Shown: positions 33,111-56,226 of the stretch, piece after piece | Layout of the letters: every line of letters starts with the position of its first letter | How positions within the stretch are numbered: position 1 is the first letter of the stretch | DNA from: an uncultured bacterium | Lineage (GTDB): Bacteria; Krumholzibacteriota; Krumholzibacteriia; JACNKJ01 | NCBI GenBank assembly: GCA_964410395.1 | Contig: CAYPGS010000009.1 | Coordinates: 6,038-70,037, forward strand | Reading direction: 5' to 3' | DNA length: 64,000 nt | The notes under the pieces: generated by a model | Database searches by the model: none | What the model was told of the DNA's origin: nothing | The model's input: the letters and a program-made list of their open reading frames with translations, nothing else | Made by a program: the position numbers and the translations under genes

Positions 33111-33136
33111 GATTGCACTCTCTTCGTCGTCGGCGT

Positions 33137-34156
33137 CTAGCTGGTGACGCCCTCGATCTCCATGGGTTTCTCAGTCTCTTCCGAGCCCGAAAGGACGGCG
33201 CTGAGGTCCATGCCCCAGTGCAGGCCCATCCCTTCGAGGATCTCGGTGATTTCCTTGAGGCTCTTGCGACCGAAGTTCCGGTACTGGAGCATCTCGTTCT
33301 CGCTCTTGATCACCAGCTCGCCGATGCTGCGGATGTTCGCGGCCTTCAGGCAGTTGGCGCTGCGCACGCTGAGCTCCAGCTCGTCCACGCTGCGGTCCAG
33401 GGTGTCGCGCAGGCGCTCGATCTCCTCGTCCACTTCCTCGTCGGCCTCGTCGAGGGGTTCCTCGTCGAAGTTGATGAAGAGGTAGAGGTGATCCTTCACG
33501 ATCTTCGACGCGAAGCCCAGGGCCTCTTCCGGCGTGATGGCGCCGTTGGTCTCGATCTCGAGGATGAGGCGATCGTAGTCCGTGCGCTGGCCGACTCGGG
33601 TGTCCTCCACGCGGAAGTTCACCTTGGTCACCGGGCAGAAGATGCTGTCCACCGGCACCACGCCGATGCTGCTGTCGGGCAGCTCGTGGTTCTCGGCGAG
33701 CACGAAACCGCGGCCGTCGCCGATGAGGACCTCGGCCTTGATGGTCGCGCCCTCGTTGAGGTGGCAGATCACCTGGTCCTTGTTGACGATCTCCACCGCG
33801 GGATCCTGGGTGATGTCCGCGGCCGTGACCGGTCCGGGACCCTTGGCCTCGAGGTAGAGCTTGTGCCAGTGGTCGGCGTGCAGCCGGACCACCAGAGCCT
33901 TGAGATTCAGCACCACGTCGGTGACGTCCTCGAGCACACCCGGGATATTGGTGAACTCGTGCAGGGCGTCCTCGAACTTCACAGCCGTGACGGCAGCTCC
34001 CTGCAGGCTGCTGAGCAGGGTGCGACGCAGGGACGTGCCCAGCGTCTGACCGAAACCGCGCTCCAGAGGCTCGACGACGAAGCGAGTGAAGTACTGGCTC
34101 TCGTCTTCCTTCTGGACCTCTACGGTCTTCGGCATCAGAACGTTCTTCCACTTCAT
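33137..34156 (-). CDS. rpoA: DNA-directed RNA polymerase subunit alpha
   Basis: 339 aa; N- and C-terminal domain sequences ([16 protein letters not shown]...) typical of RpoA. Confidence 0.93.
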
Positions 34157-34194
34157 ATGCGGAATTCCTCCCTCTCAGTCTAGTCCTGTCAGGC

Positions 34195-34824
34195 TTACTT
34201 CGAGTAGAGCTCGACGATCAGCTGCTCCTGAACCATGGTCGGGATCTCGGCCCGCTCGGGAACGCTGATGTAGGAGCCCTCGAACTTCGCGTCGTCGGTG
34301 CTGATGTAGCTGACGCGGCCGCGGCCGGTCGCGCTCTTCAGCGAGTCGACGATGAAGGGATTCTTACGACTCTTGTCCCGCAGGGTCACCACGTCGCCGG
34401 GCTTCACCTGGAAGCTGGGCACGTTGACGATGCGGCCGTTCACTTCGAAGTGGCGATGGGCAACAAGCTGGCGCGCCGCGTTGCGGCTGGGCGCGAAGCC
34501 CATGCGGTAGACCATGTTGTCCAGGCGGCCCTCGAGGAGCTGCAGCAGGTTGGTGCCGGTCACGCCCGTGCGGCGAGCGGCCTCCGCGAAGTAGTTGCGG
34601 AAGGGCTTCTCGAGCACGCCGTAGATGCGGCGGAGCTTCTGCTTCTCACGGAGCTGGAGTCCGAACTCGGAGGCCTTGCGGCGGCGTCCGCGTCCGTGCT
34701 GTCCGGGAGGATAGGGTCGCTTCTCGATGGCGCAGCGATCGCTGAAGCAGCGCTCGCCCTTCAGGAAGAGCTTGTCCCCCTCGCGCCGGCAGAGCTTGCA
34801 TTTCGCGTCGGTGTATCGGGCCAT
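34195..34824 (-). CDS. rpsD: 30S ribosomal protein S4
   Basis: MARYTDAKCKLCRREG...; start set at ATG complement 34822-34824 with AGGAGG SD (ORF-track start 34878 is an extension). Confidence 0.9.
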   Translation of the reverse strand: MARYTDAKCKLCRREGDKLFLKGERCFSDRCAIEKRPYPPGQHGRGRRRKASEFGLQLREKQKLRRIYGVLEKPFRNYFAEAARRTGVTGTNLLQLLEGRLDNMVYRMGFAPSRNAARQLVAHRHFEVNGRIVNVPSFQVKPGDVVTLRDKSRKNPFIVDSLKSATGRGRVSYISTDDAKFEGSYISVPERAEIPTMVQEQLIVELYSK

Positions 34825-34847
34825 TTGGCCTAAACCTCCTGATATAC

Positions 34848-35237
34848 CTAGTTGCGGCGCCGCTTGGTGGGACGGCATCCGTTATGGGGAACGCTGGTCT
34901 TGTCCTTGATGCCGGACACTTCGATGCCCGTGGCATGGATGGACCGAATCGCGGCTTCGCGGCCCGGGCCGGGACCCTTCAGGTGGATCTCGCAGCGGCG
35001 CAGGCCCGCGTTCATTGCGTCGCGAACGACCTTCTCGGCGGCGATCTGCGCGGCGAAGGGCGTGCTCTTACGGCTGCCCTTGTATCCCGCCGTGCCGGCG
35101 CTGCCCCAGGCGAAGACCTCGCCCTGGGTGTTCGTGACCGTGATGATCGTGTTATTAAAGCTGGACTTGATGTGCACCACGCCCACCGAGTCCATCTTCT
35201 TCGACTTTTTTCTCGTCGTCCTTCTTGGACCAGCCAT
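34848..35237 (-). CDS. rpsK: 30S ribosomal protein S11
   Basis: ...GVVHIKSSFNNTIITVTNTQGE... S11 signature. Confidence 0.93.
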   Translation of the reverse strand: MAGPRRTTRKKSKKMDSVGVVHIKSSFNNTIITVTNTQGEVFAWGSAGTAGYKGSRKSTPFAAQIAAEKVVRDAMNAGLRRCEIHLKGPGPGREAAIRSIHATGIEVSGIKDKTSVPHNGCRPTKRRRN

Positions 35238-35291
35238 GTTCCTCCTCAGAATTTCAAGCAGGCCGAAGCCCTAAACCCTGAAATCGGGGTT

Positions 35292-35663
35292 CTACTTCTT
35301 CTTTCCGCCGGGACGGGCCTTGGGGCCCTTCCGCGTGCGGGCGTTCGTCTTGGTTCGCTGTCCCCTGCAGGGCAGCCCTTTGCGGTGGCGGAGGCCGCGA
35401 TAGCAGCCGATGTCCATGAGACGCTTGATGTTCATGGACGTTTCGGTGCGAAGTGTACCTTCCGTCTTGTACTCCGCCTTGTTGAGCTCATCGCGAAGCA
35501 GAGCGTTCTGCTCCTCGGTGAGATCCTTCACGCGGATGCTCTCATCGATGCCGGTGGCCCCCAGGATCTTCTCGCTGGTGGTCCGGCCGACGCCGAAGAT
35601 GTAGGTCAACGCCACGACGATGCGCTTGTTGGCCGGAAGGTCTACGCCTTGAATTCGAGCCAA
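35292..35663 (-). CDS. rpsM: 30S ribosomal protein S13
   Basis: [26 protein letters not shown]... S13 signature. Confidence 0.93.
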
Positions 35664-35685: not shown

Positions 35686-35805
35686 TCAACCCTGGCGCTG
35701 CTTGTGCCGGGGATTCTTTTTGCAAATGACCCGCACAACTCCGTTGCGCCGGATCACCTTGCAGTGATCACACATCGGTTTGACCGAGGCTCGGACTTTC
35801 ATCAT
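35686..35805 (-). CDS. rpmJ: 50S ribosomal protein L36
   Basis: Unlisted small ORF translated by hand: [39 protein letters not shown] (zinc-ribbon CxxC...CxxxxH). Confidence 0.85.
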
Positions 35806-35841
35806 TACCTCTCATTAGCGGTCCGGGCGGACCCGGTTACT

Positions 35842-36060
35842 CTACTTGTAGCGGTAGACGATTCTGCCCCGGGTCAGGTCATAGGGTGATAGTTCCACCG
35901 TGACCTTGTCTCCGGGCAGGATGCGAATCAGGTGCATCCTCATCTTGCCGGCCACGTGGGCCAGCACCGTGTGGTTGTTCTCCAGCTCAACGCGAAACAT
36001 GGCGTTGGACAGGGCCTCAACCACGGTTCCCTCTACCGATATGGCTCCTTGCTTTGCCAT
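35842..36060 (-). CDS. infA: translation initiation factor IF-1
   Basis: [41 protein letters not shown]... S1-like fold. Confidence 0.93.
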
Positions 36061-36074
36061 TCTCCTCCCGACCG

Positions 36075-36824
36075 TCAGTCCAGGAGCGTCAGGATTCTAG
36101 GTCCCTGCTCCGTTACCGCGACCGTGTGCTCGAAGTGGGCGGACAGCTTCCCGTCGGCTGTGACGACGGTCCACTCGTCTTCGAGAGTCTTCACCTTCTC
36201 GCCGCCGGCGTTCACCATCGGCTCGATGGCGAAGACCATTCCGGCCTTGAGCACGGGCCCCCGTCCGGGAGGTCCGAAGTTGGGGATCTGCGGCTCTTCG
36301 TGCAGCTTCGAGCCGATCCCGTGTCCAACCAGGTCCTTCACCACGGAGAAGCCGTGGGCTTCCACGTGCACCTGGATGGCGTTCGAAATGTCGCTCAGGT
36401 GCTTCCCGGGAACGCACTGCTCGATGCCCTTCTCCAGGCTTCGAAGCGTGACGTCCATGAGCCGGGCCGCCTCTTCGCTCACCGCCCCGACCTTGAAGGT
36501 CACGGCGGAGTCGGCCATCCAGCCATCTTTCTCGACACCCACGTCGATGCTCACCAGGTCGCCCTCATCCAGGACGCGCCCGTTGGGGATGCCGTGCACC
36601 ACCTCGTCATTCACGGAGATGCAGCTGTTGGCCGGGAAACCCATGTAGCCCTTGAAGGCGGGCCGGGCGCTCTCGCGCTCTATGGTTTCCCTGATGATCT
36701 CGTCCAAATCCTTCGTGGACGCTCCGGGCCGAACGGCTTCGCCGGCGGCGTCCAGGGCCCTGCGGAGAATCGTCCCCGCGGCGGCCATCTTGTCGATCTG
36801 TCCCTCGGTCTTGAGCGTGATCAC
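36075..36824 (-). CDS. map: type I methionine aminopeptidase
   Basis: Metal ligands in ...GHGIG..., ...FAIEPM..., ...HFEHT...; start assigned to GTG (complement 36822-36824, VITLKTEGQ...) overlapping adk stop; ORF-track extension to 37100 rejected. Confidence 0.85.
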
Positions 36825-37495
36825 GCCGACTGCTTCTCGCCGAACTGATCGCGCAGGATCGAGAAGATCGCGTCGGTCACCGTGTCGGGCGCCTGCGATC
36901 CGTCGATTTCCACCAGCTTGTCCCGATCGCGGAAGAAGCCGATGACCGGGGCCGTTTCCTTCTCGAAGACCTCCAGCCGACGCCGGATGGTCTCGGGGCG
37001 GTCGTCGTCCCGCAGGAAGTAGGCGCCGCCACACTTGGGGCACTCGCCTTCCTCGGAGATGTCCTCGCCCAGCTCGGCCGGGCTGAGGATGGCGCCGCAA
37101 TCCTTGCAGGTGCGACGCGAGCTGAGGCGCTTCACGACTTCCTCGGCGTCCACCTGGATGAGCACACCCAGATCCAGCTCACCCTCCATGCCTTCCAGAA
37201 GGCCTTCCAGGCCTTCGGCCTGCGCCACCGTGCGGGGGAATCCGTCGAGGATCCAACCCTTGGCGCAGTCGTCCTGGCGGAGGCGCTGATCCATCATCCC
37301 CAGGATGATTTCGTCGCTCACGAGTCCGCCGGACTCCATGATCTTGCTCGCGGCCTTGCCCAGGTCGCTTCCCGCGGCGATCTCGGCGCGGAGGATGTCC
37401 CCCGTGGAGATGTGCGCCAGCTGATAGCGATCCTTGATCTTGGCGGCCTGCGTTCCCTTGCCTGAACCGGGAGCACCCAGAAAGACCAGGTTCAC
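36821..37495 (-). CDS. adk: adenylate kinase (with zinc-finger LID: CKDCG...CPKCG)
   Basis: MNLVFLGAPGSGKGTQA... P-loop; Cys4 lid. Confidence 0.93.
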   Translation of the reverse strand: MNLVFLGAPGSGKGTQAAKIKDRYQLAHISTGDILRAEIAAGSDLGKAASKIMESGGLVSDEIILGMMDQRLRQDDCAKGWILDGFPRTVAQAEGLEGLLEGMEGELDLGVLIQVDAEEVVKRLSSRRTCKDCGAILSPAELGEDISEEGECPKCGGAYFLRDDDRPETIRRRLEVFEKETAPVIGFFRDRDKLVEIDGSQAPDTVTDAIFSILRDQFGEKQSA

Positions 37496-37497
37496 GG

Positions 37498-38796
37498 TTA
37501 CCTCCGCCCTCTCAGCTTGCCCTTTTTCATGAAGCCGTCGTAGTGGCGCATGAAGAGGTGGCTTTCGATCTGCTGCAGAGTGTCCAGTACCACGCCCACC
37601 ACGATGAGCAGTCCCGTGCCGCCGAAGTAGAAGGGCACGCGGAACTTCGCGATGAGGATGTCCGGCAGCACGGCGATGAAGGCCAGGAAGATCGCGCCCG
37701 GTAAGGTAATGCGGCTCAAGGACTTATCGATGTAGTTCGCCGTGTTCTTGCCGGGGCGGATGCCGGGAATGAATCCGCCGAATTTCTTCATGTTCTCCGC
37801 CATGTCCACCGGGTTGAGCACGATGGCCGTGTAGAAGTAGGCGAAGAAGATGATGATGAGCGAATAGACGACCACGTAGACCGTCTGCCCGGGCGATAGG
37901 AGCCGTGTAATGGCGTCCATGAACGCGTTGCCCTGGAAGAAGGCCGAGATCGTCGCCGGGAACATCACGAATGCCTGGGCGAAGATGATGGGAATCACGC
38001 CCGCCGTGTTCACCTTCAACGGAATGTGCGTGTTCTGTCCGCCGTAGACCTTTCGCCCCACGACCCGCTTGGGATACTGCACCGGAATGCGGCGCTGCCC
38101 CTGGGTCATGAAGATGATGCCCGCGATCACCAGGATCATCATGGCCAGCATCACCAGGCCGCCCATGTAGCTCATCTGCTTGGTCTGCAGGGCCTTGATC
38201 GTGTTGAACAGGTCGGTCGGATAGCGGGCGATGATGCCGATGGTGATGATCAGGCTGATCCCGTTTCCGATTCCCCGCTCGGTGATCTGCTCACCCAACC
38301 ACATGACGAAGATGGTTCCCGTGGTCAGGGTGAGGATCGTGAGCAGCTTGAAGGGCAGTCCGGGGCTCGCCACGACCTCGGGTCCCATGGACTCGAGGAA
38401 GAAGCTCACGCCGATACCCTGCATGGCCGCCAGCAGCACCGTGCCGTAGCGGGTGAACTGGGTTATCTTCTTTCGACCCTCGTCGCCTTCCTTCGACAGC
38501 TTCTCGAAATACGGAATCACAGCCTGGAGAAGCTGCATGATAATCGAGGCGCTGATGTAGGGCATGATGCCCAGGGCGAAGATGGTCGCCTTACTGAGGT
38601 TTCCTCCGGCGAACAGGTCGTAGAGCTGCAGCACTCCGCCGCCCTGGTTCTGGAAGAACTCCAAAATGGCAAGCCGATTCACGCCGGGCAGCGTCACGTG
38701 GCCGCCCAAGCGATACACGATCAGCATCAACGCCGTGAAACCGAGGCGCCGACGCAGGTCGGGAATCTTGAACATGCTCTGGAAACTGCTGATCAC
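37498..38796 (-). CDS. secY: preprotein translocase subunit SecY
   Basis: 432 aa, 10 TM, typical SecY N-terminus and plug region. Confidence 0.93.
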   Translation of the reverse strand: MISSFQSMFKIPDLRRRLGFTALMLIVYRLGGHVTLPGVNRLAILEFFQNQGGGVLQLYDLFAGGNLSKATIFALGIMPYISASIIMQLLQAVIPYFEKLSKEGDEGRKKITQFTRYGTVLLAAMQGIGVSFFLESMGPEVVASPGLPFKLLTILTLTTGTIFVMWLGEQITERGIGNGISLIITIGIIARYPTDLFNTIKALQTKQMSYMGGLVMLAMMILVIAGIIFMTQGQRRIPVQYPKRVVGRKVYGGQNTHIPLKVNTAGVIPIIFAQAFVMFPATISAFFQGNAFMDAITRLLSPGQTVYVVVYSLIIIFFAYFYTAIVLNPVDMAENMKKFGGFIPGIRPGKNTANYIDKSLSRITLPGAIFLAFIAVLPDILIAKFRVPFYFGGTGLLIVVGVVLDTLQQIESHLFMRHYDGFMKKGKLRGRR

Positions 38797-38838
38797 CCTA
38801 TTTCTCCACTTTCCGCGGCCTCAGCCGCAAGAGATTCC

Positions 38839-39285
38839 CTAGGCGACGGACTCCACCGAGCCGCCGGCGGCCTCGACGAGCTCGCGGGCCTTCCCGCTGC
38901 ACTTCTCGACCTGGATTTTGAAGGCGCGGCTGACCGTGCCCTCGCCCAGCAGTTTCACCGGCCGGTTGCGCTTGCCCACGAGACCGTTCTCGAAGAGCAC
39001 GTCGGGAGTGATCTCCTCGACGCCCTCGGGCAGCTTGTCCAACTGGCCGACGTTGACGATCTGGAACTCGACCTTGAAGATGTTCGTGAACCCGCGCTTG
39101 GGCACACGGCGCTGGATGGGCATCTGACCGCCCTCGAACCAGGCGCGCTTCTTCGAGCCGGAGCGGGATCCGTATCCCTTGTGGCCGCGACCCGAGGTCT
39201 TTCCGAGGCCGCTGCCGGGCCCACGTCCGAGGCGCTTCCTCTTCTGCGTCGCGCCGGGGGCGGGCTTGAGTTCGTTAAGCTTCAT
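38839..39285 (-). CDS. rplO: 50S ribosomal protein L15
   Basis: MKLNELKPAPGATQKRKRLGRGPGSGLGKTSGRGHKG... Confidence 0.92.
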   Translation of the reverse strand: MKLNELKPAPGATQKRKRLGRGPGSGLGKTSGRGHKGYGSRSGSKKRAWFEGGQMPIQRRVPKRGFTNIFKVEFQIVNVGQLDKLPEGVEEITPDVLFENGLVGKRNRPVKLLGEGTVSRAFKIQVEKCSGKARELVEAAGGSVESVA

Positions 39286-39289
39286 GGAG

Positions 39290-39478
39290 CTACTCCTCCA
39301 CTTCCTCGACCCGAACCATGTGCTTTACCACGAAAGCCATGCCCCGGATCTGGGGGGTATCCTCGTGAACCACGGTGTGGTGCATACGCTTGAGGCCGAG
39401 GGCCTCGATGGTCCTCTTGGCCTTGACCTTGTTCCCGATCAGGGACCGGGTCTGTGTGATCTTGAGCTTCTTGGCCAT
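39290..39478 (-). CDS. rpmD: 50S ribosomal protein L30
   Basis: [29 protein letters not shown]... Confidence 0.9.
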
Positions 39479-39481
39479 GGC

Positions 39482-40108
39482 CTAAGCCTCCTCGTTCAGG
39501 CCGTACATCTTGCGGACCGACAGGCCGCGGCGCTTGGCCACCTGGCTCGAGGTCTTGATCCGCGTCAGTCCCTCCATGGTCGCGCGGACCATGTTGTGCG
39601 GGTTGTTGGTCCCCAGGGACTTGGTCAGGATGTCCGAGATGCCCGCCGCCTCGAGGACCGCACGCACCGGCCCGCCGGCGATAACGCCGGTACCGGGCGC
39701 TGCGGGCTTCAGCAGCACGCGACCCGCACCCCAGCGACCGGTGACCTGGTAGGGAATGGTCCGGTTCTGGAAGCGGTTGACGTCCACCATGTTCCGCCGG
39801 GCGGCTTCGGTGCCCTTGCGGATGGCATCGGCGATTTCCCGCGCCTTGCCCAGGCCCGTGCCCACCTTGCCGTTCCCGTCGCCCACGGCGACCAGAGCGG
39901 TGAAGCTGAAGTTCTTGCCGCCCTTCACGGTCTTCGACACGCGGTTGATGGCGACGACATTTTCGATCAGGTTCGAGCGTTCCTCTTCCTGCTCGCGGCG
40001 GCGGTCGCGACGATCGCGGCGATCACGGTCGCGGCCTCCTCCCGGCCCGCGCTGGCCTCCGGGTCCTGCTGGTCCGCGCTGCCCGCCCCTGTCATTGTCT
40101 CTGAACAC
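39482..40108 (-). CDS. rpsE: 30S ribosomal protein S5 with Arg/Gly-rich N-terminal extension
   Basis: ...[35 protein letters not shown]... S5 core preceded by ~45-aa RG/RD-rich low-complexity stretch. Confidence 0.9.
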
Positions 40109-40128
40109 GTTCGGTCCCCCTTAGGTAC

Positions 40129-40500
40129 CTAGAATTCCAGTCCCGCTTCGCGGGCGGCCTCGGCCAGGGCCTTCACCCGGCCGTGATAGAGGAAGCCGCC
40201 CCGGTCGAACGCCACTTCCTTGATTCCCTTGGCGAGCGCAGCCTCGGCGATGGCCCTGCCCACCGCGCGGGCCTGAGCAACCTTGCGGGTCTCGCCCTCG
40301 CCGGGCTCCACCGTCAGCTTCAGGCTGTTGGCGCTGGCCATGGTCACGCGGGATCGATCGTCGATCACCTGCGCGTAGATATTGGTCAGGCTGCGATACA
40401 CGGCGAGGCGCGGACGCTCGGCGCTTCCGCCGATGTGCTTGCGGATCCTGCGATGGCGCTTGATGCGCTGTCCTTTGCGATCGAAGGGCTTGATCGACAT
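40129..40500 (-). CDS. rplR: 50S ribosomal protein L18
   Basis: ...[20 protein letters not shown]... L18 signature. Confidence 0.92.
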
Positions 40501-40503
40501 GGT

Positions 40504-41055
40504 TTACGCTCCCTCCTTCGCAGAGGCCTTACCGGCCTTGCGGATGATGTGCTCGCCCTTGTAGCGAATGCCCTTGCCCTTGTAAGGCTCCGGCGGACGC
40601 CAACCGCGGATGTTCGCGGCCATCTGTCCCACCTTCTCCTTGTCGAAACCGAGAATCTTGATCTCGGTGGGAGAAGGCACCTCGAAGGTGACGCCCTCGA
40701 AGGGCTCCACCACCACGGGGTGCGAGAAGCCGAGGGCCATCTCGAGGTTCTTGCCCTTGAGCTCGGCGCGGTAGCCCACGCCCTCGATCACCAGCTCCTT
40801 CATGAAGCCCTCCGACACGCCAAGCACCATGTTGGCGATGAGCGTGCGGGTCAGGCCATGCTGAGCCTTGTGATACTTGCTCTCGGTGGGCCGGGCCACG
40901 TTGAGTTCACCGTCTTCGAGCTTGAGCGCCATCTCGGTGTTCACCTTGCGGCTCAGCTCTCCCTTGGGACCCTTCACCGAGACCAGGGAATCGTCGCCGA
41001 TATCCACGGTCACGCCGGAGGGGATGGGGATCGGTTTCAGTCCGATTCTAGACAT
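40504..41055 (-). CDS. rplF: 50S ribosomal protein L6
   Basis: MSRIGLKPIPIPSGVTVDIGDDSLVSVKGPKGEL... Confidence 0.92.
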   Translation of the reverse strand: MSRIGLKPIPIPSGVTVDIGDDSLVSVKGPKGELSRKVNTEMALKLEDGELNVARPTESKYHKAQHGLTRTLIANMVLGVSEGFMKELVIEGVGYRAELKGKNLEMALGFSHPVVVEPFEGVTFEVPSPTEIKILGFDKEKVGQMAANIRGWRPPEPYKGKGIRYKGEHIIRKAGKASAKEGA

Positions 41056-41069
41056 CTCTCTCCTCCCCC

Positions 41070-41468
41070 CTACCAGATCTGGCAGAGGAACTCTCCGCCA
41101 ACGCCCTCTTTGCGGGCATCCGTTCCGGTGAGGATTCCCCTGCTCGTCGAGAGGACGGCAATACCGTAGCCGCCCATGACGCGGGGAATCTCCTCGCGCT
41201 TCACGTAGACTCGCCGGCCAGGCTTGCTGACTCGCTTCAAGCCCTCGATGGCGGGGGTGTTTTCCTTGTCATACTTCAGGTACACCCGAAGCAGTCCCTG
41301 CTTCGAGTCGTCCACGAGCTTGACGTCCTTGACGTAGCCCTGGTGCAGGAGGATCTTCGCGATCTCGCCCTTCACCCGGGAAGCCGGGATTTCGACCCGG
41401 CTGTGCTTGGCACGGGTCGCGTTCCTTATTCTCGTCAAGAAGTCCGCAATGGGATCGGTCATCGACAT
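41070..41468 (-). CDS. rpsH: 30S ribosomal protein S8
   Basis: MSMTDPIADFLTRIRNA... S8 signature. Confidence 0.92.
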   Translation of the reverse strand: MSMTDPIADFLTRIRNATRAKHSRVEIPASRVKGEIAKILLHQGYVKDVKLVDDSKQGLLRVYLKYDKENTPAIEGLKRVSKPGRRVYVKREEIPRVMGGYGIAVLSTSRGILTGTDARKEGVGGEFLCQIW

Positions 41469-41505
41469 GTGTTCCTACCCCTTGTGTCGATCCAAAGTCT
41501 TGAAT

Positions 41506-41691
41506 CTACCAGCTGGCCTTCACCACGCCGGGTATCTCGCCTTTAAGTGCCAACTCACGGAAGCAAATCCTGCAAATACCAAACTGGCGCATGTAAGCCC
41601 GGGGACGTCCGCAACGGCGGCACCGGGAGTACTCACGCACACCGAACTTCGGCTTGCGCTTCTGCTTGGCGATGAGACATTTCTTGGCCAC
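41506..41691 (-). CDS. rpsZ: 30S ribosomal protein S14 type Z (zinc-binding)
   Basis: 61 aa, CRRCGRP...CRICFRE Cys4. Confidence 0.9.
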
Positions 41692-41707
41692 GATTACCTC
41701 TCGCTGG

Positions 41708-42253
41708 TCAGTTGCTGCGCCGGAAAGGCATGTTGAGAAGGCGGAGCATTTCGGCGGCCTCCTCGTCCGTTTCGGCTGTGGTTACGATGCTGATATCCAT
41801 ACCCATGATCCGGGCGATCTTGTCGTAATCGATCTCCGGAAAGATGATCTGCTCTTTGACGCCCAGGTTGTAGTTACCCCGGCCGTCGAAGCCCTTCTCG
41901 GACACGCCGCGGAAGTCACGGATACGCGGCAGGGCCACGTTCACCAAGCGATCCATGAACTCCCACATCATCTCGCCGCGCAGGGTCACCTTGCTGCCCA
42001 CGTCCATGCCCTCGCGAAGCTTGAAATTCGCGACGGATTTGCGGGCCTTGGTGATCTTCGGCGCCTGGCCGGTGATGGCGGCCATGTCCTTACGCGCGGC
42101 CTCGATGAGGTTGCCGTCGCGCGATCCTTCTCCGACGCCCATGTTCACCACAATCTTCACCATCTTCGGGATCTGATTGGGATTGGCGTACTTGAACTTC
42201 TCGTTCATCGCCGGCGCCACGTTTTCCTTGTAGTACTCTTTCAGCCTGGCCAT
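41708..42253 (-). CDS. rplE: 50S ribosomal protein L5
   Basis: [42 protein letters not shown]... Confidence 0.93.
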
Positions 42254-42314
42254 GGATTTCCTTTCCTCGAGCCGTCCTGTCCGGGCCCCTCTGGCGGGGG
42301 ACCGGGTCGGCTAC

Positions 42315-42548
42315 CTAGCCTCTGCTGCCCTGTTCAATCAACTTCACGTTGGAGGCGTGGATGGGACCTTCCTTCTCGATGATCCCGCCCGGATCCTGCT
42401 GACTGCGCGGCTTGGTGTGCCGCTTCTGCAGGTTCACGCCTTCGATGACCACGCGGTTCACTTCGGGCAGTACCTTAAGCACCTTGCCCTTGCGGCCCTT
42501 GTGGGCTCCGCTGATCACCTCGACTGTGTCGTTCTTCGCGATCTTCAA
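42315..42548 (-). CDS. rplX: 50S ribosomal protein L24 (short form, 77 aa)
   Basis: KOW motif ...GAHKGRKGKVLKV...VVIEGVNLQKRHTKP... Confidence 0.85.
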   Translation of the reverse strand: MKIAKNDTVEVISGAHKGRKGKVLKVLPEVNRVVIEGVNLQKRHTKPRSQQDPGGIIEKEGPIHASNVKLIEQGSRG

Positions 42549-42559
42549 AGCTCTTCCCC

Positions 42560-42928
42560 CTAGAGGACTTCCGGGGCGAGCGACACGATCTTCATGAATC
42601 TCTTCTCACGAAGCTCGCGCGCCACGGGTCCGAAAATACGGGTGCCCACCGGCTCGTTGGTCTGGTTGATGATCACCGCGGCGTTCTGGTCGAAGCGGAT
42701 GTAGCTTCCGTCGCGACGACGGACCTCTTTCCGCGTTCTCACCACGACCGCCCTGGCGACCTGGCCCTTCTTCACGGTGCCATTGGGGAGGGCCTGTTTC
42801 ACGGCGACGGTGATGACGTCGCCCACGGACGCGTACTTCCTGCGGGAGCCGCCGAGTACCTTGATGCACTGGGCCTTCTTGGCTCCGGAGTTGTCCGCGA
42901 TGACGACCATGCTTTCCTGCTGAATCAT
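42560..42928 (-). CDS. rplN: 50S ribosomal protein L14
   Basis: [33 protein letters not shown]... Confidence 0.93.
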
Positions 42929-42940: not shown

Positions 42941-43204
42941 CTATTCGGCTCGCTTGACGATCTCGGAAACGCGCCAACGCTTGGTCTTGCTCAAGGGGCG
43001 CGTGGACATGACGCGAACCTGGTCGCCCGTTCTGCAGCTGTTCTCCGCATCGTGGGCCACCACGCGGGTCGTCCGCTTGTAGTAGCGCTTGTAGCGAGGA
43101 TGGGGAACGCGGCGCTCGACGGCCACCACGACGCTCTTGTCCATCTTGTCGCTGACGACGGTACCCAGGAGGGATTTCCTCAGGTTCCGGCTCTTCTCTT
43201 CCAT
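42941..43204 (-). CDS. rpsQ: 30S ribosomal protein S17
   Basis: ...[30 protein letters not shown]... Confidence 0.92.
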
Positions 43205-43228
43205 GATCTTCTCCTGTCCTCGCCCGGC

Positions 43229-43426
43229 CTAGCTCAGCTTGGCCTGGTTTTCTTCGATCAGGGTCTTAACCCTGGCCAAATCGCGGCGAAGGTTCCGGAT
43301 CTGGATGGGATTATCGAGCTGGTTGAGCGAATGGCGCATCTTCAGGTTGAAGAGCTCCTCCTTCAGCTCGTTTTCCTTCTCCCGGAGTTCCTGGAGATTG
43401 AGATCCCTCAGCTCATTGACCTTCAT
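43229..43426 (-). CDS. rpmC: 50S ribosomal protein L29
   Basis: MKVNELRDLNLQELREKENELKEELFNLKMRH... Confidence 0.9.
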   Translation of the reverse strand: MKVNELRDLNLQELREKENELKEELFNLKMRHSLNQLDNPIQIRNLRRDLARVKTLIEENQAKLS

Positions 43427-43435
43427 GACTTCCCC

Positions 43436-43840
43436 CTAGCGGGTAACGAACTTGACTTTGGCCGGAAGTTTGGCGGCGCCCCTGCGCATGGCCTCGCGGG
43501 CGGTATGTTCATCCACCCCTTCCAGCTCGAACATGATCCGGCCCGGCTTCACCACGGCGACCCAGTACTCGGGGTTGCCCTTACCCTTACCCATGCGGGT
43601 CTCGGCGGGCTTGATGGTGATGGGCTTGTCCGGAAAGATGCGGATCCACAGCTTTCCGCCACGCTTCACGTGACGCGTGATGGCCACACGCGCGGCCTCG
43701 ATCTGACGGCTGGTCACCCAGCAGACTTCCTGGGCCTGGAGGCCATACTGTCCGAAGGAGATCGTGGAGCCACGATAGGCGAAGCCGCGCCTCTTACCCT
43801 TCTGGACCTTGCGGTGCTTGACTCGCTTGGGCATCAACAT
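43436..43840 (-). CDS. rplP: 50S ribosomal protein L16
   Basis: [36 protein letters not shown]... Confidence 0.93.
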
Positions 43841-43843
43841 GAC

Positions 43844-44515
43844 TTAGATGGCCTCCTGAACCTGGCTCCGGAGCTCCTTCTTGAACTCCTTGGGGAAGAT
43901 CTCCCCGTGATTGATCCACACCTTCACGCCCACCGTGCCGAAAGTGGTGATGGCCGTGGCGGTGTTGTAATCGATGTCGGCGCGCAGGGTGTGGAGGGGA
44001 ACCTCGCCCTCGCGGTAGAGCTCGGTGCGGGCGATCTCGGCGCCGTTCAGGCGGCCGGAGCACTGCACCTTGATGCCCTTGGCGCCCATGCGCATGGCGG
44101 AGGTCAGGGCCTTCTTCATGGCGCGCTTGAAGCTGACGCGTCCCACGAGCTGGTCGGCGATGTGCTCGGCCACCAGCTTGGCGTTCAGTTCGGGGCGCTT
44201 CACTTCCTTGATGTTCAGGAAGACCTGCTTGCCCGTCAGATGCTTGAGCTGATCGCGGAGCAGATCCACCTCGGCGCCCTTGCGGCCGATGACGATGCCC
44301 GGCCGGGCCGTGTGGATGTTCACCGTGACCTTGCCCTTCTGGCGCTCGATGGCCACGCGGGCGATGCCGGCCCTGGAAAGACGGCGGTTGATGAAGCGAC
44401 GGATGGTGATGTCCTCGTTCAGCCAGTCCGCGTACTTCTTCCCGCCGAACCAGCGGGAGTTCCACGTCTTGATGATTCCGAGCCTAAAGCCTGTGGGATG
44501 AGTCTTCTGACCCAA
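43844..44515 (-). CDS. rpsC: 30S ribosomal protein S3
   Basis: [23 protein letters not shown]... KH domain. Confidence 0.93.
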
Positions 44516-44526
44516 AACGGTCCTCC

Positions 44527-44868
44527 TTATTCGGCGACTACCACGTGGATGTGGGTCGTCCGCTTACGGATGCGAAAAGCGCGTCCCTGGGCGCGAGGGC
44601 GGATCCGCTTCATGGTCGGACCCTCGTTCGCGTAGATTTCCTTGACCACCAGGCTGTCCACGTCGACGGGATTCTCCTCGTCGGACAGGTGCAGGGCGTT
44701 GGCGGCAGCCGACTGCAGCAGTTTGTAAACCGGCTGCGCGGCCTTCTTGTTCATGTGCTTCAGCATCTCCATGGACTCGCTCACGTTCCGTCCACGAACC
44801 AGGTTGATGACCTGGCGCGCCTTGCTCGGCGAGATGCGAATGAATGTGGCGCTGGCCTTTCCAGCCAT
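44527..44868 (-). CDS. rplV: 50S ribosomal protein L22
   Basis: [37 protein letters not shown]... Confidence 0.92.
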
Positions 44869-44917
44869 GACAAACCTCCAAGAGCCGGCGAGCGATTACG
44901 CGCGCCCGGCCCGCTCT

Positions 44918-45181
44918 TTAGTCCTTTTTCCTGTGACCCCGGAAGGTCCGGGTCGGCGCGAACTCACCCAGCTTGTGACCCACCATGTTCTCGGTCACGT
45001 AGACGGGGATGAACTTGTTGCCGTTGTGGATCGCGACGGTGTGTCCCACGAACTCCGGAGAGATCGCGCTCCGACGCGCCCAGGTCTTGATGACGGTCTT
45101 GTCTCCCGACTCGTTCATCTTCTCGAGCTTGCCCAGAAGGCGCTCGTCAATGAAGGGGCCCTTCTTGAGGGAACGTGCCAA
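44918..45181 (-). CDS. rpsS: 30S ribosomal protein S19
   Basis: [23 protein letters not shown]...[32 protein letters not shown]. Confidence 0.93.
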
Positions 45182-45198
45182 AGTCCCTTCCTCCTCGT

Positions 45199-46029
45199 TT
45201 ACTTGCCGTAGCGGCGGCGGACGATGAACTTGTCCGTGGCCTTGTTTCTGCGAGTCCTGAAGCCCTTGGACGGCTGTCCCCAGGGAGAGACGGGATGCCC
45301 GCCGCCCGAGGTCTTGCCTTCTCCGCCGCCCATGGGGTGGTCCACCGGGTTCATGGCGACGCCGCGCACCTTGGGACGCTTGCCCAGCCAGCGCGAGCGG
45401 CCGGCCTTGCCGGACACCACGTTTTCGTGATCCAGATTGCCCACCTGTCCCAGAGTCGCGTAGCAGTTCTGGTGCACCAGGCGCACCTCGCCGCTGGGCA
45501 GGCGCATGTGGGCGTATTCGCCGTCCTTCGCCATGAGCTGGGCGTAGGCGCCGGCGCCGCGGGCCATCTGTCCGCCCTTGCCGATGCGAAGCTCGATGTT
45601 GTGCACCAGGCTACCCGTGGGGATGCTCCGAAGGGGCAGCGCGTTGCCGGTGCGGATCTCGGCCTCGGGTCCGGCCAGCAGGCTGTCGCCCACCTTCAGG
45701 CCGTTGGGCGCGATGATGTAGCGCTTCTCGCCGTCGGCATAGAGCAGCAGGGCGATGCGCGCCGAGCGGTTCGGATCGTACTCGATGGTCTTGACCGTCG
45801 AGGGGATCCCCGCCTTGTCGTGGCGCTTGAAATCGATGCGACGGTACTGGCGCTTGTGGCCACCGCCGCGACGACGCATGGTGATCCGTCCCTTGTTGTT
45901 GCGGCCGCCGCTCTTCTTGAGGGGCTCCATGAGGGACTTCTCGGGCTTGTTCGTCGTGATCTCAGCGAAGTCCGAAACCGTGCGGTAACGCAGGGTCGGT
46001 GTCTTCGGCTTGAACTTCTTGATACCCAT
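45199..46029 (-). CDS. rplB: 50S ribosomal protein L2
   Basis: 276 aa; ...[21 protein letters not shown]... Confidence 0.95.
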
Positions 46030-46040
46030 GACGGTTCTCC

Positions 46041-46328
46041 CTAGAGCTCACCGACGATGTCGATGCTGTTGCCTTCGGCCAGCGTGACGACGGCTTTCTT
46101 CCAGTCGGGGCGCTTACCGCTGAAGCGGCCCATGGTCTTGATCTTGCCCCGGACGTTCATGGTCCGGACGTCTTCCACGGTGACCTTGAACATGGTCTCG
46201 ACGGCGCGCTTGATCTGCGGCTTGTCGGCCTTGCGGTCCACCTCGAAGACGTACTTGTTCTCCGCCATGAGCGCGCTCGTGCGCTCGGTCTGCAGAATGC
46301 GGCGGATGGTCTGGTGCAGGTCGCTCAC
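46041..46328 (-). CDS. rplW: 50S ribosomal protein L23
   Basis: ...[37 protein letters not shown]... Confidence 0.9.
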
Positions 46329-46954
46329 GATCCGAACACCTCCTTGACCTGCTCCAGCGCGGAGGAGGTCATCACGATCTTGTCGGCCCAGAGCACCTGG
46401 TAGGCGTTCAGTTCGCGGCCGACGATGAAGTCGAGGTCGCGCACGTTGCGGGCGGACTTGCTGATGTTGATGTCGTAGTCGTCCATGACCAGCAGGACCT
46501 TGCTGCCGGACACGCCCATCTCGCCGAGAACGCCGGTGAAGGCCTTGGTCTTGGGCTCGTCCATGCTGAGGTCTTCGATGACCAGGACATTGCCCTCCGA
46601 GGCGCGATCGCTCAACGCGGCGAAGAGGGCCTTCCTGCGGGCCTTCCGGGGCATCTTGTAGGAATGATCCCGGGTCTTGGGCCCGAAGGCGGTACCGCCG
46701 CCGACGCGCGTGGGCGACTTGGCGGAACCGGCGCGGGCGCGGCCCGTGCCCTTCTGGCGGTAGAGCTTCGCGGTGGAGCCCGTCACCTCGGAACGATCCT
46801 TGGTGTGGGCAGTGCCGGAGCGCTGGTTGGCCAGGTAATTCCTGACGGCCTCATAGAGCAGGTGCCCGTTGACTTCCTGGCCGAAGATCTCGGCCGGAAG
46901 ATCGGTGCTTCCCTTGCTCTTGCCGTTCGCGTCGTAAAGCGTTGCGTTCGCCAT
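46325..46954 (-). CDS. rplD: 50S ribosomal protein L4
   Basis: ...[48 protein letters not shown]... matches L4 (not L3). Confidence 0.92.
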
Positions 46955-46989
46955 TTCGACTCCCGTCTATCCTTGTCCGGGCTCTGGCC

Positions 46990-47301
46990 TCAGACCTTGA
47001 TCTCGATGTCCACGCCCGCCGGCAGGTCCAGCTTCGTCAGCGCGTCCAGGGTCTGGGGGGATGATTTCGTGATCTCGATGAGGCGCTTGTGGATGCGCAT
47101 CTCGAACTGCTCGCGGCTCTTCTTGTCCACGTGGGGCGAGCGCAGCACGGTATAGAGGCTGCGCTGCGTGGGCAGCGGGATGGGTCCGGAGATCTCGGCG
47201 CCGGTCCGCTTGGCGGTGCGCACGATCTCGAAGGCGGACCTGTCCAGCGTCGCGCTCTCGTAGGCCTTGAGCCTGATCTTGATCTTCTGGCCAGTGTACA
47301 T
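46990..47301 (-). CDS. rpsJ: 30S ribosomal protein S10
   Basis: [45 protein letters not shown]... Confidence 0.93.
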
Positions 47302-47370
47302 TCTTGCTCCTCTTTCGGTCGGCTACTCCAGCATTTCCGTCGTTCGCGGAATCTGCTCGCCTGTCGATTT

Positions 47371-47437
47371 AGCTACCAGCTTCCAGCTACCAGCGACCAG
47401 CTTCTTGCTGGCGGCTGGCAGCTGGCTGCAGGCGGCC
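47371..47437. repeat. CCAGCTN-heptamer inverted-repeat hairpin element, copy B (immediately 3' of tuf stop)
   Basis: AGCTACC AGCTTCC AGCTACC AGCGACC AGC - TTCTT - GCTGGCG GCTGGCA GCTGGCT GCAGGCGGCC; near-identical to copy D1 at 63642-63705. Confidence 0.85.
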
Positions 47438-47439
47438 TT

Positions 47440-48630
47440 TTACTCGTTGATCTTCGTCACCACGCCGGCGCCCACCGTGCGGCCGCCTTCACGGATCGCG
47501 AACCGAAGGTTCTCCTCCATCGCGATCGGCGTGATCAGCTCAACGTCCAGCTTAACATTGTCACCGGGCATCACCATCTCCGTGCCCTCAGGCAGCGTCG
47601 CAACACCCGTCACGTCCGTCGTACGGAAGTAGAACTGGGGACGGTAGCCCTGGAAGAAGGGAGTATGACGGCCGCCCTCTTCCTTCGTCAGGATGTAGAC
47701 CTCGCCCTCGAACTTCGTGTGAGGCGTCACGCTGCCAGGCTTCGCCAGCACCATGCCGCGCTCCAGGTCGCTCTTCTCCACGCCGCGAAGCAGAAGGCCC
47801 ACGTTGTCGCCAGCCTGGGCATCGTCCAGAAGCTTGCGGAACATCTCAACACCGGTCACCGTCGTCTCGAGCGTGTCACGGATGCCGATCCGCTGGACCT
47901 TGTCGCCCACCTTCACCACGCCGCGCTCGATACGGCCCGTGCCCACCGTGCCGCGACCCGTGATCGAGAAGACGTCCTCGACCGGCATCAGGAAGGGCTT
48001 GTCCGTGTCCCGCTCAGGCTCCGGAATGTAGCTGTCGATCGCTTCCAGAAGCTCGTCGATGCTCTTGTTTGCCGCATCGTCCTCAGGGTTGTTCAGGGCC
48101 TGAAGCGCGCTGCCCCGGATGACCGGAATGTCGTCGCCCGGGAACTCGTACTCGCTCAGAAGCTCGCGAACCTCGAGCTCCACCAGGTCCAACAGCTCTT
48201 CGTCGTCAACCTGGTCCACCTTGTTCATGTAGACCACCATGTAGGGAACGTTCACCTGACGACCCAGCAGAACGTGCTCGCGGGTCTGGGGCATCGGGCC
48301 GTCGGCCGCGCTCACCACCAGAACCGCGCCATCCATCTGAGCCGCACCCGTGATCATGTTCTTCACGTAGTCGGCGTGACCCGGGCAGTCAACGTGAGCG
48401 TAGTGACGGTTCTCCGTCTGGTACTCCACGTGAGCCGTCGCGATGGTGATGCCGCGCTCGCGCTCCTCAGGAGCCTTGTCGATCTCGTCGAAGGGCGTGA
48501 ACTCGGCAAGGCCCTTGGCGCCCTGACGCTGAGTGATCGCCGCCGTCAGCGTCGTCTTCCCGTGGTCAACGTGACCGATCGTACCCACGTTTACGTGCGG
48601 CTTTGTCCTCTCAAACTTCTCTTTCGCCAT
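47440..48630 (-). CDS. tuf: elongation factor Tu (str-operon copy)
   Basis: 396 aa; [32 protein letters not shown]... Confidence 0.97.
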
Positions 48631-48660
48631 GGCGAATCGACCTCCTGTAGGGTCTCGGTT

Positions 48661-50733
48661 TTACTGGGCCGTCACAAAGCGGCTTGCGATACTCGATGGC
48701 ACTTGCTCGAAATGCGAGAACTGCATCGAAAAGGTGGCCCGCCCCTGCGTGAGCGAGCGCAATTTCGTCATGTACCCGAACATCTCCGAAAGAGGGACCG
48801 TCGCATCGACGATCTGGGCATCCGCCCTGGGGGCCATTCCCGCCACTTTCCCGCGGCGGGCGTTCAGGTCCCCGATGACCTCCCCGGTAAAATCTCCGGG
48901 CGTTACGACCTCCACGCTCATGACCGGCTCGAGAATCATCGGCTCGGCGCCCCTGGCGGCTTCGCGGAAGGCCAGGGCCCCCGCGGCGTGAAAGGCCTGT
49001 TCAGAGGAGTCGACCTCGTGGTGGATGCCTGCCAGGAGCTCCACCTTCAGGTCAGTCATCTCGTATCCGGCGATGACTCCGGAGGCCGTGGCCTCCCTGA
49101 CCCCTCTCTCCACGGCGGCGACGAAATCCTTGGGGAGATCGTCACCGTCCAGCCGGTTCTCGAACTGGATCCCGTCGCCGGTGGCGGCGGGTTCCACGGC
49201 CAGGGTCACTTGGGCGAACATTCCCTGGCTTCCGGCTGTGCGCTCGAAGCGCAATTCCTTCTCCGCACGTTTGGTCACCGACTCGCGGTAGACCACCTGC
49301 GGCTTTCCGACGTTCGCCCCCACGTTGAACTCCCGGAGCATTCGGTCCAGGAGGATCTCCAGGTGCAGTTCGCCCATCCCGGAGATCAGGGTCTGGCCCG
49401 TGTCCTTGTCGACGCGGACCTTGAAAGTCGGGTCTTCCTCGGCGAGGCGTCTGAGCGAGTCGTCGAGCTTCTCCTGATCGGCCTTGGTCTTAGGCTCGAT
49501 GGCGATGTCGATGACCGGCTCCGGAAACTCCATCCGCTCCAGCAGCATGGGCTTCTTGGGATCCGTGAGCGTGTCGCCCGTCCGGACTTCCTTGAGCCCC
49601 ACCACCGCGGCGATGTCTCCCGCCAGAACCTGCTCCACTTCCTCACGCTTGTTGGCGTGCATCCGGAGCAGCCGGCCCATCCTCTCCTTGCGTTCCGTGG
49701 CGACGTTCAGAACCTGCGCCCCGGATTTCAGCTGACCGCTGTAGACCCTGATGTAGGCCAGTTTCCCGGCGAACGGATCGTTGGCGATCTTGAAGAGGAG
49801 AGCCGCGAAAGGCTCGTCCACCGAGGCCTTCCGGCTCACCGTCTCCTCCCGGCCGGGCTTGATGCCCTCCACCGCCGGAAGGTCCAGAGGGCTGGGCAGG
49901 AACTTCACGATCCCGTCCAGCAGGGGCTGGATCCCCTTGTTTCCCAGAGCCGATCCGCAGAACACGGGGATGATCTCCACCGTCAGCGTTCCCTTTCGGA
50001 TGGCCCCCCGAAGCAGCTCGCCGTCGAGCTCGCCGCCCTCGAGGTAGGCCTCGGCCACTTCGTCGTCGAAGTCCGCCAGGGCCTCGATGAGCCGGGTGCG
50101 GGCCTCTTCGGCCTCGGCCTCCGACTCGGCGGGGATGTCGGCGATGCGATACTTGGCGCCGAGAACATCCTCGTCATAAAAGAGCGCTTTCATTTCCACG
50201 AGGTCGATGACCCCCCGGAAAGCGTCCTCGCTTCCGATGGGAAGCTGGACCGCGACGCCGTTGGCCCCAAGACGCTCCCGGATCGCTGTGAGCACGGCGT
50301 CGAAGTCGGCGCCTATCCGGTCCATCTTGTTGACGAAGGCCAGACGCGGGACCCGGTAGCGGTCGGCCTGCCTCCAGACCGTCTCGCTTTGAGGCTCCAC
50401 GCCGCCCACGGCGCAGAAGACGGCCACCATGCCGTCCAGGACCCGCAGGCTTCTCTCCACTTCCATCGTGAAATCGACGTGCCCGGGGGTGTCGATAATG
50501 TTCACACGATGGTCGAGCCAGTCGCAGCTCGTGGCGGCGGAGGTGATGGTGATCCCCCGCTCCTTCTCCTGCTCCATCCAGTCCATGGTCGCGGCCCCGT
50601 CGTGGACCTCTCCCATGCGATGGATGATTCCGGCGTAGTAAAGAATCCTCTCGGTGGTCGTCGTCTTACCGGCATCGATATGTGCAGCGATGCCGATGTT
50701 GCGTATTCGATCGATGGACTCTTTCTTCGCCAT
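48661..50733 (-). CDS. fusA: elongation factor G
   Basis: Start set at ATG complement 50731-50733 ([33 protein letters not shown]...); ORF-track start 50880 reads through the upstream hairpin and is rejected. Confidence 0.93.
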
Positions 50734-50739
50734 GGCCCT

Positions 50740-50804
50740 AAAAAAACCCCTCCTGAGACCCTTCGACTTGTACATAGTCCTGCAGTCAAGGGTCTCAGGA
50801 GGGG
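50740..50804 (-). promoter_or_regulatory. terminator-like RNA hairpin in rpsG-fusA spacer: perfect 15-bp stem (CCCCUCCUGAGACCC ... GGGUCUCAGGAGGGG), 28-nt loop, then U7, ending 6 nt before fusA AUG; the 3' arm contains AGGAGG
   Basis: Plus-strand arms 50747-50761 and 50790-50804 are exact reverse complements; A7 at 50740-50746 (U7 on the minus-strand transcript). Confidence 0.6.
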
Positions 50805-50920
50805 TTTCCCTTTCGGGACCTTTTCCTGCAGGTATCGTCCTCCGGCGGTTCGGCCCGTCGATACTTGGGGCCTCGTTCACCGCTGCCGGCGGCTATGTAA
50901 GGGTCTTCCTTTCCTAGAGA

Positions 50921-51391
<471 letters not shown>

Positions 51392-51409
51392 CGTTTTCCT
51401 CTGCTAGCC

Positions 51410-51794
51410 CTATTTCTTGGGCTTCTTGGTTCCGTACTTGGAGCGACGCTGTCCGCGTCCGTCCACTCCGCTGGTATCCAGGGCGCCGCGCACGATGTGG
51501 TACCGCACGCCGGGGAGGTCCTTCACTCGGCCTCCGCGCACCAGGACGATGGAGTGCTCCTGGAGATTGTGTCCCTCACCGGGAATGTAGGCCGTCACCT
51601 CGATGCCGTTGGTCAAGCGCACGCGCGCGACCTTTCGCAGCGCGGAATTGGGCTTCTTGGGCGTCGTCGTGTAGACCCGGGTGCAGACGCCCCGACGCTG
51701 CGGATTGCTCTGCAGGGCCGGCGACTTGCTCTTCTTCTTGATGACCTTGCGGCCATTCCGGATCAACTGATTCAGGGTCGGCAATCCAACTCTC
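51410..51794 (-). CDS. rpsL: 30S ribosomal protein S12 (likely TTG start)
   Basis: Conserved S12 begins ...[24 protein letters not shown]...; TTG at complement 51792-51794 with AAGGAG 6 nt upstream; ORF-track ATG 51877 adds a non-conserved 27-aa extension. Confidence 0.85.
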
Positions 51795-51897
51795 CTTGAG
51801 ACCGCGCACCCCGCCTTAGGGCTTTTTGCCCAGACGTAATGCCTTGCCGTGTAAGTAGTTAACGCAAGGTGGGCCAAGCAGGGCGCACAAAGAACCG

Positions 51898-51942: not shown

Positions 51943-52011
51943 AGCTACCAGCTTCCAGCTGCCAGCTACCGGCCAGAATCCGGCTGGGAGCTGGTTGCTG
52001 GCGGCTGGCCG
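51943..52011. repeat. CCAGCTN-heptamer inverted-repeat hairpin element, copy C (immediately 3' of rpoC stop)
   Basis: AGCTACC AGCTTCC AGCTGCC AGCTACC GGCC - AGAAT - CCGGCTGGGAGCTGGTTGCTGGCGGCTGGCCG. Confidence 0.85.

Positions 52012-56226
<4,215 letters not shown>

Follow-up and report, generated by a model that had tools for sequence, protein, structure and literature searches.

In the canonical E. coli-type S10 operon, the gene order is rpsJ-rplC-rplD-rplW-rplB-rpsS-rplV-rpsC-rplP-rpmC-rpsQ, followed by the spc and alpha operons. The string encoding L3, L4, L23 and L2 is among the most conserved gene orders in prokaryotes. L3, the product of rplC, is essential and is needed for early 50S assembly and for building the peptidyl-transferase centre. 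To our knowledge, it is present in all sequenced cellular genomes. In the cyanobacterial/plastid, chlamydial and archaeal arrangements, rpsJ stays with tuf and the rplC-rplD-rplW-rplB cluster is separate. Unlinked or duplicated genes are also known for small ribosomal proteins, for example the paralogues of S14, L31, L33 and L36. The 64 kb stretch of DNA analysed here (the window) holds a variant of this well-known operon from which rplC is missing, and the finding reaches from this one window to a whole clade. The junction consisted of three features:

46990-47301, minus strand: rpsJ, encoding S10 (103 aa; Pfam PF00338 Ribosomal_S10, E 8.8e-38)
46955-46989, minus strand: spacer between rpsJ and rplD, the usual slot of rplC (35 nt, read from the sequence)
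46325-46954, minus strand: rplD, encoding L4 (209 aa), directly 3' of rpsJ (Pfam PF00573 Ribosomal_L4, E 5.5e-66)

The stop codon of rpsJ (TGA, 46990-46992, minus strand) and the start codon of rplD (ATG, 46952-46954, minus strand) enclosed 35 nt only, with the sequence GGCCAGAGCCCGGACAAGGATAGACGGGAGTCGAA, and no rplC. A Shine-Dalgarno-like GGGAG at 46960-46964 lay 5 nt before the rplD ATG. No promoter or terminator motifs were found when the spacer was searched for them, and its predicted RNA structure was unremarkable (z −1.6). The Ribosomal_L4 match spanned residues 18-205 of 209 and the whole profile, and the L4 of the window aligned with the outgroup L4 across residues 1-209. The ribosomal proteins neighbouring the junction were of ordinary length and conservation.

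The junction lay within a long string of ribosomal protein genes:

51410-51877 (ORF limits), minus strand: rpsL (str operon, Pfam)
50921-51391, minus strand: rpsG (str operon, Pfam)
48661-50880, minus strand: fusA (str operon, Pfam)
47440-48630, minus strand: tuf (str operon, Pfam)
47440-51877, minus strand: str operon rpsL-rpsG-fusA-tuf as a whole, 5' of rpsJ (Pfam)
47302-47439, minus strand: spacer between tuf and rpsJ (138 nt); contains a long hairpin of CCAGCNN/GCTGGNN heptads (RNA fold)
46041-46328, minus strand: rplW, encoding L23 (ORF map, Pfam)
45199-46029, minus strand: rplB, encoding L2 (ORF map, Pfam)
44918-45181, minus strand: rpsS (ORF map; Pfam on the identical gene of L001)
44527-44868, minus strand: rplV (ORF map; Pfam on the identical gene of L001)
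43844-44515, minus strand: rpsC (ORF map; Pfam on the identical gene of L001)
43436-43840, minus strand: rplP (ORF map; Pfam on the identical gene of L001)
43229-43426, minus strand: rpmC (ORF map; Pfam on the identical gene of L001)
42941-43204, minus strand: rpsQ (ORF map; Pfam on the identical gene of L001)
42941-46328, minus strand: S10 operon 3' of rplD, from rplW to rpsQ, in canonical order (ORFs and Pfam)
35686-42928, minus strand: spc operon in canonical order (ORFs and Pfam)
32580-35663, minus strand: alpha operon, with rpsM, rpsK, rpsD, rpoA and rplQ (Pfam)

The first gene of the S10 operon, rpsJ, was located downstream of the str operon and its tuf (order rpsL-rpsG-fusA-tuf-rpsJ). 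From rplD onwards, the genes rplD-rplW-rplB-rpsS-rplV-rpsC-rplP-rpmC-rpsQ were encoded on one strand in the expected order (ORF map and Pfam). The S10 operon ran straight on into the spc and alpha operons, as seen from the ORFs and Pfam and also on an identical Logan contig. The spc operon comprised rplN, rplX, rplE, rpsN (61 aa), rpsH, rplF, rplR, rpsE, rpmD, rplO, secY, adk, map, infA and rpmJ. The upstream string consisted of a second tuf, rpmG, tRNA-Trp, secE, nusG, rplK, rplA, rplJ, rplL, rpoB, rpoC, rpsL, rpsG, fusA and tuf. The only expected gene missing from the str, S10, spc and alpha string was rplC. An Rfam scan of the window at gathering thresholds returned tRNA-Trp only and no ribosomal protein leader. 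Most E. coli ribosomal protein regulatory RNAs are reported to be narrowly distributed to Gammaproteobacteria (PMC3616713); accordingly, the lack of an E. coli-type L4-responsive leader in the window is expected.

Two ORFs of the string had N-terminal extensions. In the S5 ORF rpsE (39482-40108, minus strand), a putative extension of approximately 45 residues had a high content of Arg, Gly and Asp; the ORF was called as a single 208-aa protein on L001 and as products of 61 aa and 152 aa on the relative L166. NusG (62434-63240, minus strand; 268 aa) had an acidic Glu/Asp/Ala-rich extension of approximately 90 residues ahead of the NusG domain, the length of which was kept in the relatives of the clade described below (268-279 aa; 318 aa in L184).

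L3 was searched for in the window and in related loci. A tblastn search of the 64 kb window with E. coli L3, a query used as a lead only, gave a best E of 0.27. Its weak matches at 13437-13716 were rejected as chance, since they fell inside a locus encoding pyruvate:ferredoxin oxidoreductase and ADP-forming acetyl-CoA synthetase. The same query recovered L3 between S10 and L4 in 72/72 GTDB loci outside the clade, at 41-60% identity, which validated the query and made the negative result in the window meaningful. Next, 69 of these L3 sequences were made into a profile HMM, which was run with all filters off against every stop-to-stop frame in all six frames. In the window, nothing scored better than E 5.8, and in the closest GTDB relatives (L005-L008), nothing better than E 1.3; none of the clade loci among L162-L184 was matched. 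PF00297 (uL3) was absent from the Pfam annotation of the clade loci. The normal length of S10 and L4 excluded a fusion of L3 to either protein. A preliminary description of the window had placed the junction at exactly these coordinates with these gene calls. Its statements that rplC is missing between rpsJ and rplD, and that the gene 3' of rpsJ encodes L4 rather than L3, agree with the 35-nt gap, the lack of L3 in any frame and the Pfam assignment. Likewise, the six-frame HMM search upheld its claim that no L3-like ORF overlaps the junction, and the ORF maps and Pfam its claim that nothing else is missing or out of order in the S10, spc and alpha operons.

The same junction was found in other genomes. 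A scan of GTDB, with one genome per species and the L4 protein as the query, yielded 76 loci. In the four closest ones (L005-L008), S10 was followed directly by L4, without an L3 within 10 kb on either side. Their L4 was 98% (L005), 88% (L006 and L007) and 72% (L008) identical to that of the window. L008 was situated on a single contig of 3.6 Mb, CAVOFT010000001.1. The remaining 72/72 GTDB loci, with record titles including Krumholzibacteriia, Eisenbacteria, Nitrospirota, Acidobacteriota, Firmicutes and Patescibacteria, had L3 between S10 and L4. Additional junction-bearing contigs were reached with homologues of the EF-Tu of the window. These were L166 from ENA (L4 identity 88%) and, from JGI, L177 (77%, 27-nt spacer), L180 (68%, GC content 70%) and L183 (71%, 62-nt spacer). 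The exact L4 protein of the window was present on Logan contigs of four runs (SRR31802803, SRR31802805, SRR24302411 and SRR24302423), each with S10 located 35 nt upstream of L4. The junction was thus recovered beyond these runs in four GTDB MAGs from different studies, one ENA scaffold and three JGI metagenome contigs. There were nine sequence-distinct versions, with L4 identities of 68-98% and spacers of 27-62 nt. The spacer was identical or nearly identical to that of the window in L005, L006, L007 and L166, and 27-62 nt long in L177, L008, L180 and L183. It extended from stop codon to ATG in every clade member, and most had a GGAG-type motif. No remnant of L3 was detected in the spacers of the clade (≤62 nt), whose translations were unlike any part of L3.

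Outside the clade, the canonical order was retained throughout. L182, from another lineage with an 85%-identical EF-Tu, had a canonical S10-L3-L4 operon. A scan of JGI metagenomes seeded with an L3 protein gave 80 loci from many lineages; L3 was followed by L4 in all of those with enough downstream sequence (78/78), and S10 was upstream wherever the contig reached that far. The L3 genes of L182, L185 and L186 were looked up individually, and all were in canonical operons. L3 was therefore apart from L4 in 0 of approximately 150 comparator loci from many phyla, yet in every member of the clade.

A neighbour-joining tree was constructed from S10, L4, L23, L2, S19, L22, S3 and L16 (42 taxa, 1189 columns, simple distance correction). 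It contained eight junction-bearing sequences (the window, L005, L007, L166, L177, L008, L180 and L183; L006 was left out). All eight were monophyletic, with a bootstrap support of 200/200. The record titles of their sister group were mostly Krumholzibacteriia, and all its members retained L3. The tufB contig of the lineage of L177 (GCA_030746695.1) carried the NCBI label 'Candidatus Krumholzibacteria bacterium'. The adjacency of rpsJ and rplD is common to the relatives, as seen in the GTDB, ENA and JGI loci and in the tree, which answers the question of its distribution raised in the preliminary description. The junction is a clade-wide synapomorphy, and the simplest reading of the tree is one excision in the ancestor of the clade. 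A literature search found no description of an S10 operon lacking rplC, nor of these MAGs. One locus, L074, was considered as a nearer outgroup and rejected: it proved to be a normal sister-group member whose sequence contains frameshift errors. It belonged to a MAG contig labelled 'Chloroflexia' (CAVPWY010000004.1), which bears an S10 operon of the Krumholzibacteriia type (L074 9302-9918). Several of its ribosomal protein genes were frameshifted, which indicates indel errors in long reads and casts doubt on the taxonomic label.

A search for an rplC gene away from the S10 operon gave the following results. L3 was absent from the 6 kb past the left end of the window, where only multihaem cytochromes were encoded, and from both 10-kb flanks of rplD in L005, L007 and L008. 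A move of the gene to the second tuf was rejected, as the 10 kb upstream of tufB in three relatives were without L3; the gene order there was ispF-gltX-...-ddl-btpA-cysS. The identities of eight neighbouring ribosomal proteins were used to predict L3 identity by regression (R2 0.94); for the L3 of the clade, the predicted identity to that of the sister group was only approximately 53-56%. A homology search with Krumholzibacteriia L3 returned, as its best 120 matches, sequences with an identity of 81% or more to the query, and the L3 of the clade was not among them; at the predicted identity, it would lie beyond their reach. Representative L3 sequences at 50% identity were ranked by a mirror-tree style comparison with the other ribosomal proteins of the window, by affinity to the sister group, a neighbour-joining tree and amino-acid composition. 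Four candidates were rejected: P0122 came from Coriobacteriia, P0250 had a JGI relative (L082) with the canonical S10-L3-L4 order, and P0257 (L185) and P0165 (L186) belonged to canonical operons. The viral contigs examined had no L3.

During this search, long L3 proteins of 270-350 aa were observed in another lineage (P0257 at L185 927-1970; also P0229, P0192 and P0235). They owed their length to a partly acidic insertion of 60-130 residues that follows approximately residue 85. The operon of L185 was still canonical (S10-L3-L4), and its L22 was also long (204 aa).

We considered several explanations for the missing gene. rplC might have been collapsed or skipped in the assembly of the window, or lost through binning. 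In favour of this, breaks and mis-joins of contigs do occur nearby in this organism: L168 fuses fusA-tuf to rpmG-secE, and L180 fuses cysS-tuf to rpsJ. These chimeric public contigs cross between the two copies of tuf and are accounted for by its duplication. The same holds for the short-read contigs, which begin approximately 170 nt upstream of rpsJ, within tuf, since a second copy lies approximately 16 kb away. However, the tuf repeat stops 138 nt upstream of rpsJ and is unable to remove a gene between rpsJ and rplD. Furthermore, the junction was recovered independently in the four Logan runs, the four MAGs (one of them the 3.6 Mb single contig), the ENA scaffold and the three JGI metagenomes, with diverged L4 sequences and with spacers varying in both length and sequence. 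A collapse of the assembly at this point, a concern of the preliminary description, was excluded by the independent short-read and long-read assemblies. The artefact reading is effectively refuted, and we consider its probability negligible. The departure of rplC is a real, inherited and rare gene-order change. L3 might also be cryptic at the locus, in an overlapping frame, as a split or frameshifted gene, or fused to S10 or L4. This was a formal possibility raised in the preliminary description and nothing more. The HMM values given above for the window and for any clade locus, the normal S10 (103 aa) and L4 (209 aa) with their full-length Pfam matches, and spacers of 35 nt in the window and no more than 62 nt in relatives, whose translations do not resemble L3, all argue against it. 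At the sensitivity of the profile HMM, a cryptic L3 is refuted, with next to no likelihood left.

A true loss would imply that the clade has no recognisable L3, its role being dispensable or filled by an unrelated or unrecognisably divergent protein. It would agree with the lack of L3 in the clade sequence reached, which amounted to approximately 64 kb plus approximately 16 kb of flanks for the species of the window, and 20-40 kb in each of several relatives. However, this inspected share is only approximately 2-3% of a genome of approximately 3.6 Mb, the neighbouring ribosomal proteins are ordinary in length and conservation, and the universality of L3, as far as is known, and its role in early 50S assembly argue against a loss. 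We regard it as very improbable. From the same universality, L3 is almost certainly encoded elsewhere in the genomes of the clade. The reading that we favour, and consider highly likely, is a clean, single ancestral excision of rplC from the S10 operon, with L3 now produced from an unlinked gene. The unlinked gene could have been acquired horizontally and have displaced the operon copy (xenologous replacement), instead of being an intragenomic duplicate; in that case, the L3 of the clade would not be sister to the L3 of Krumholzibacteriia. The Krumholzibacteriia-like L3 representatives (P0122, P0250, P0257 and P0165) all proved not to be the gene of the clade, which would fit a foreign origin; the same outcome is equally expected if the L3 of the clade was absorbed by a larger 50% cluster. 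The searches, limited to the best 120 or 150 matches, cannot separate the two origins, and we consider a foreign one rather unlikely.

Under the favoured reading of a single excision, the following course of events is proposed. Because L3 is essential, a second copy of rplC must have been present elsewhere in the genome before the operon copy was lost. This copy may have arisen by intragenomic duplication or transposition, or by foreign acquisition. The whole of rplC would have been removed once, in the common ancestor of the clade, leaving rpsJ joined to rplD through a short spacer that retained a Shine-Dalgarno sequence for rplD. As the spacer has no simple terminator or promoter motif, a single transcript most likely still covers rpsJ, rplD and the genes after them, and rplD would be translated from its own Shine-Dalgarno sequence. 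L3 would be supplied in trans and uncoupled from the S10 operon, with the promoter and ribosome-binding site of its own gene determining how much is made.

The second tuf (63864-64000, minus strand) was cut by the end of the window and had 97% DNA identity to the 3' end of the tuf of the str operon (47432-47568). It was followed by rpmG (63711-63860), tRNA-Trp (63562-63637), secE and nusG. The hairpin in the spacer between tuf and rpsJ had a predicted folding energy of −63.1 kcal/mol (z −4.2) and belonged to the repeat family D1/D3. A search of this spacer for the sigma-70 consensus gave no match. The hairpin may act as an operon boundary or processing element, and any rpsJ-proximal promoter probably lies in this spacer. 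Similar tandem-heptad hairpins, in which CCAGCNN pairs with GCTGGNN, were located at 13538-13627, 47371-47443, 51943-52015, 63487-63520 and 63642-63714, all intergenic, after the genes of pyruvate:ferredoxin oxidoreductase, tuf, rpoC, tRNA-Trp and rpmG. The window contained 17 heptad matches vs. 0.01 expected by chance. At the same position between tuf and rpsJ, relatives had different heptads (ACTGGAG five times in L005, GCGGTAA four times in L007), indicating that the repeat unit turns over fast while its position is kept. The hairpin was rejected as a clade-specific tag, as the heptads differ even among close relatives.

Outside the ribosomal gene string, a large multihaem cytochrome with many CxxCH motifs (1 to approximately 700, minus strand) continued beyond the left edge of the window, just outside which further multihaem cytochromes were encoded (L162 1-7200). 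Pyruvate:ferredoxin oxidoreductase (1195 aa; 9946-13533, plus strand) adjoined an ADP-forming acetyl-CoA synthetase (13582-15756, plus strand). Together, the predicted cytochromes, pyruvate:ferredoxin oxidoreductase and acetyl-CoA synthetase suggest that the bacterium lives anaerobically and possibly respires metals or electrodes.

As a rare genomic change, the excision of rplC can be used as a discrete marker for an uncultured lineage beside Krumholzibacteriia. The clade also represents a natural experiment on whether the dosage of L3 has to be coupled to the S10 operon in transcription and translation. These genomes will be mis-handled by marker-gene pipelines, and by annotation based on synteny, that expect rplC in its usual slot. 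Should the unlinked rplC prove to be foreign, a core 50S assembly protein would join the short list of horizontally replaced ribosomal proteins. A loss of canonical uL3, if true, would make these the first cellular organisms known with a large subunit built without canonical L3.

Compared with known systems, the paralogues of S14, L31, L33 and L36 are a precedent for ribosomal protein genes that are duplicated, displaced or replaced outside the main operons. However, those are small proteins, often in zinc-related pairs, whereas L3 is a large core 50S assembly protein, and we know of no case in which such a protein has left the S10 operon clade-wide. The closest sequenced relatives with a complete operon are those of the sister lineage (L009-L027, with titles mostly Candidatus Krumholzibacteriia), whose S10, L2 and L4 are 68-77%, 69-73% and 51-57% identical to those of the window. 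They share with the window the linkage of tuf and rpsJ, and their contigs break at tuf as a duplicated tuf would cause. In contrast to the window, they keep an rplC of 206 aa between rpsJ and rplD, with spacers of approximately 20-70 nt on each side. The window has in common with the canonical E. coli-type operon the first gene, the order of the other ten genes, the continuation into the spc and alpha operons and the str operon upstream. It differs in lacking the second gene, rplC, so that rpsJ is located 35 nt from rplD, and in that no Rfam ribosomal protein leader was detected. In the cyanobacterial and archaeal type, the S10 operon is likewise broken next to rplC. There, the break falls between rpsJ and rplC, and rplC is kept with rplD; in the window, rpsJ is not detached but adjoins both tuf and rplD, and rplC alone is gone. 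The link broken in the window is that between L3 and L4, which is far more conserved than the rpsJ-rplC link broken in the cyanobacterial and archaeal type.
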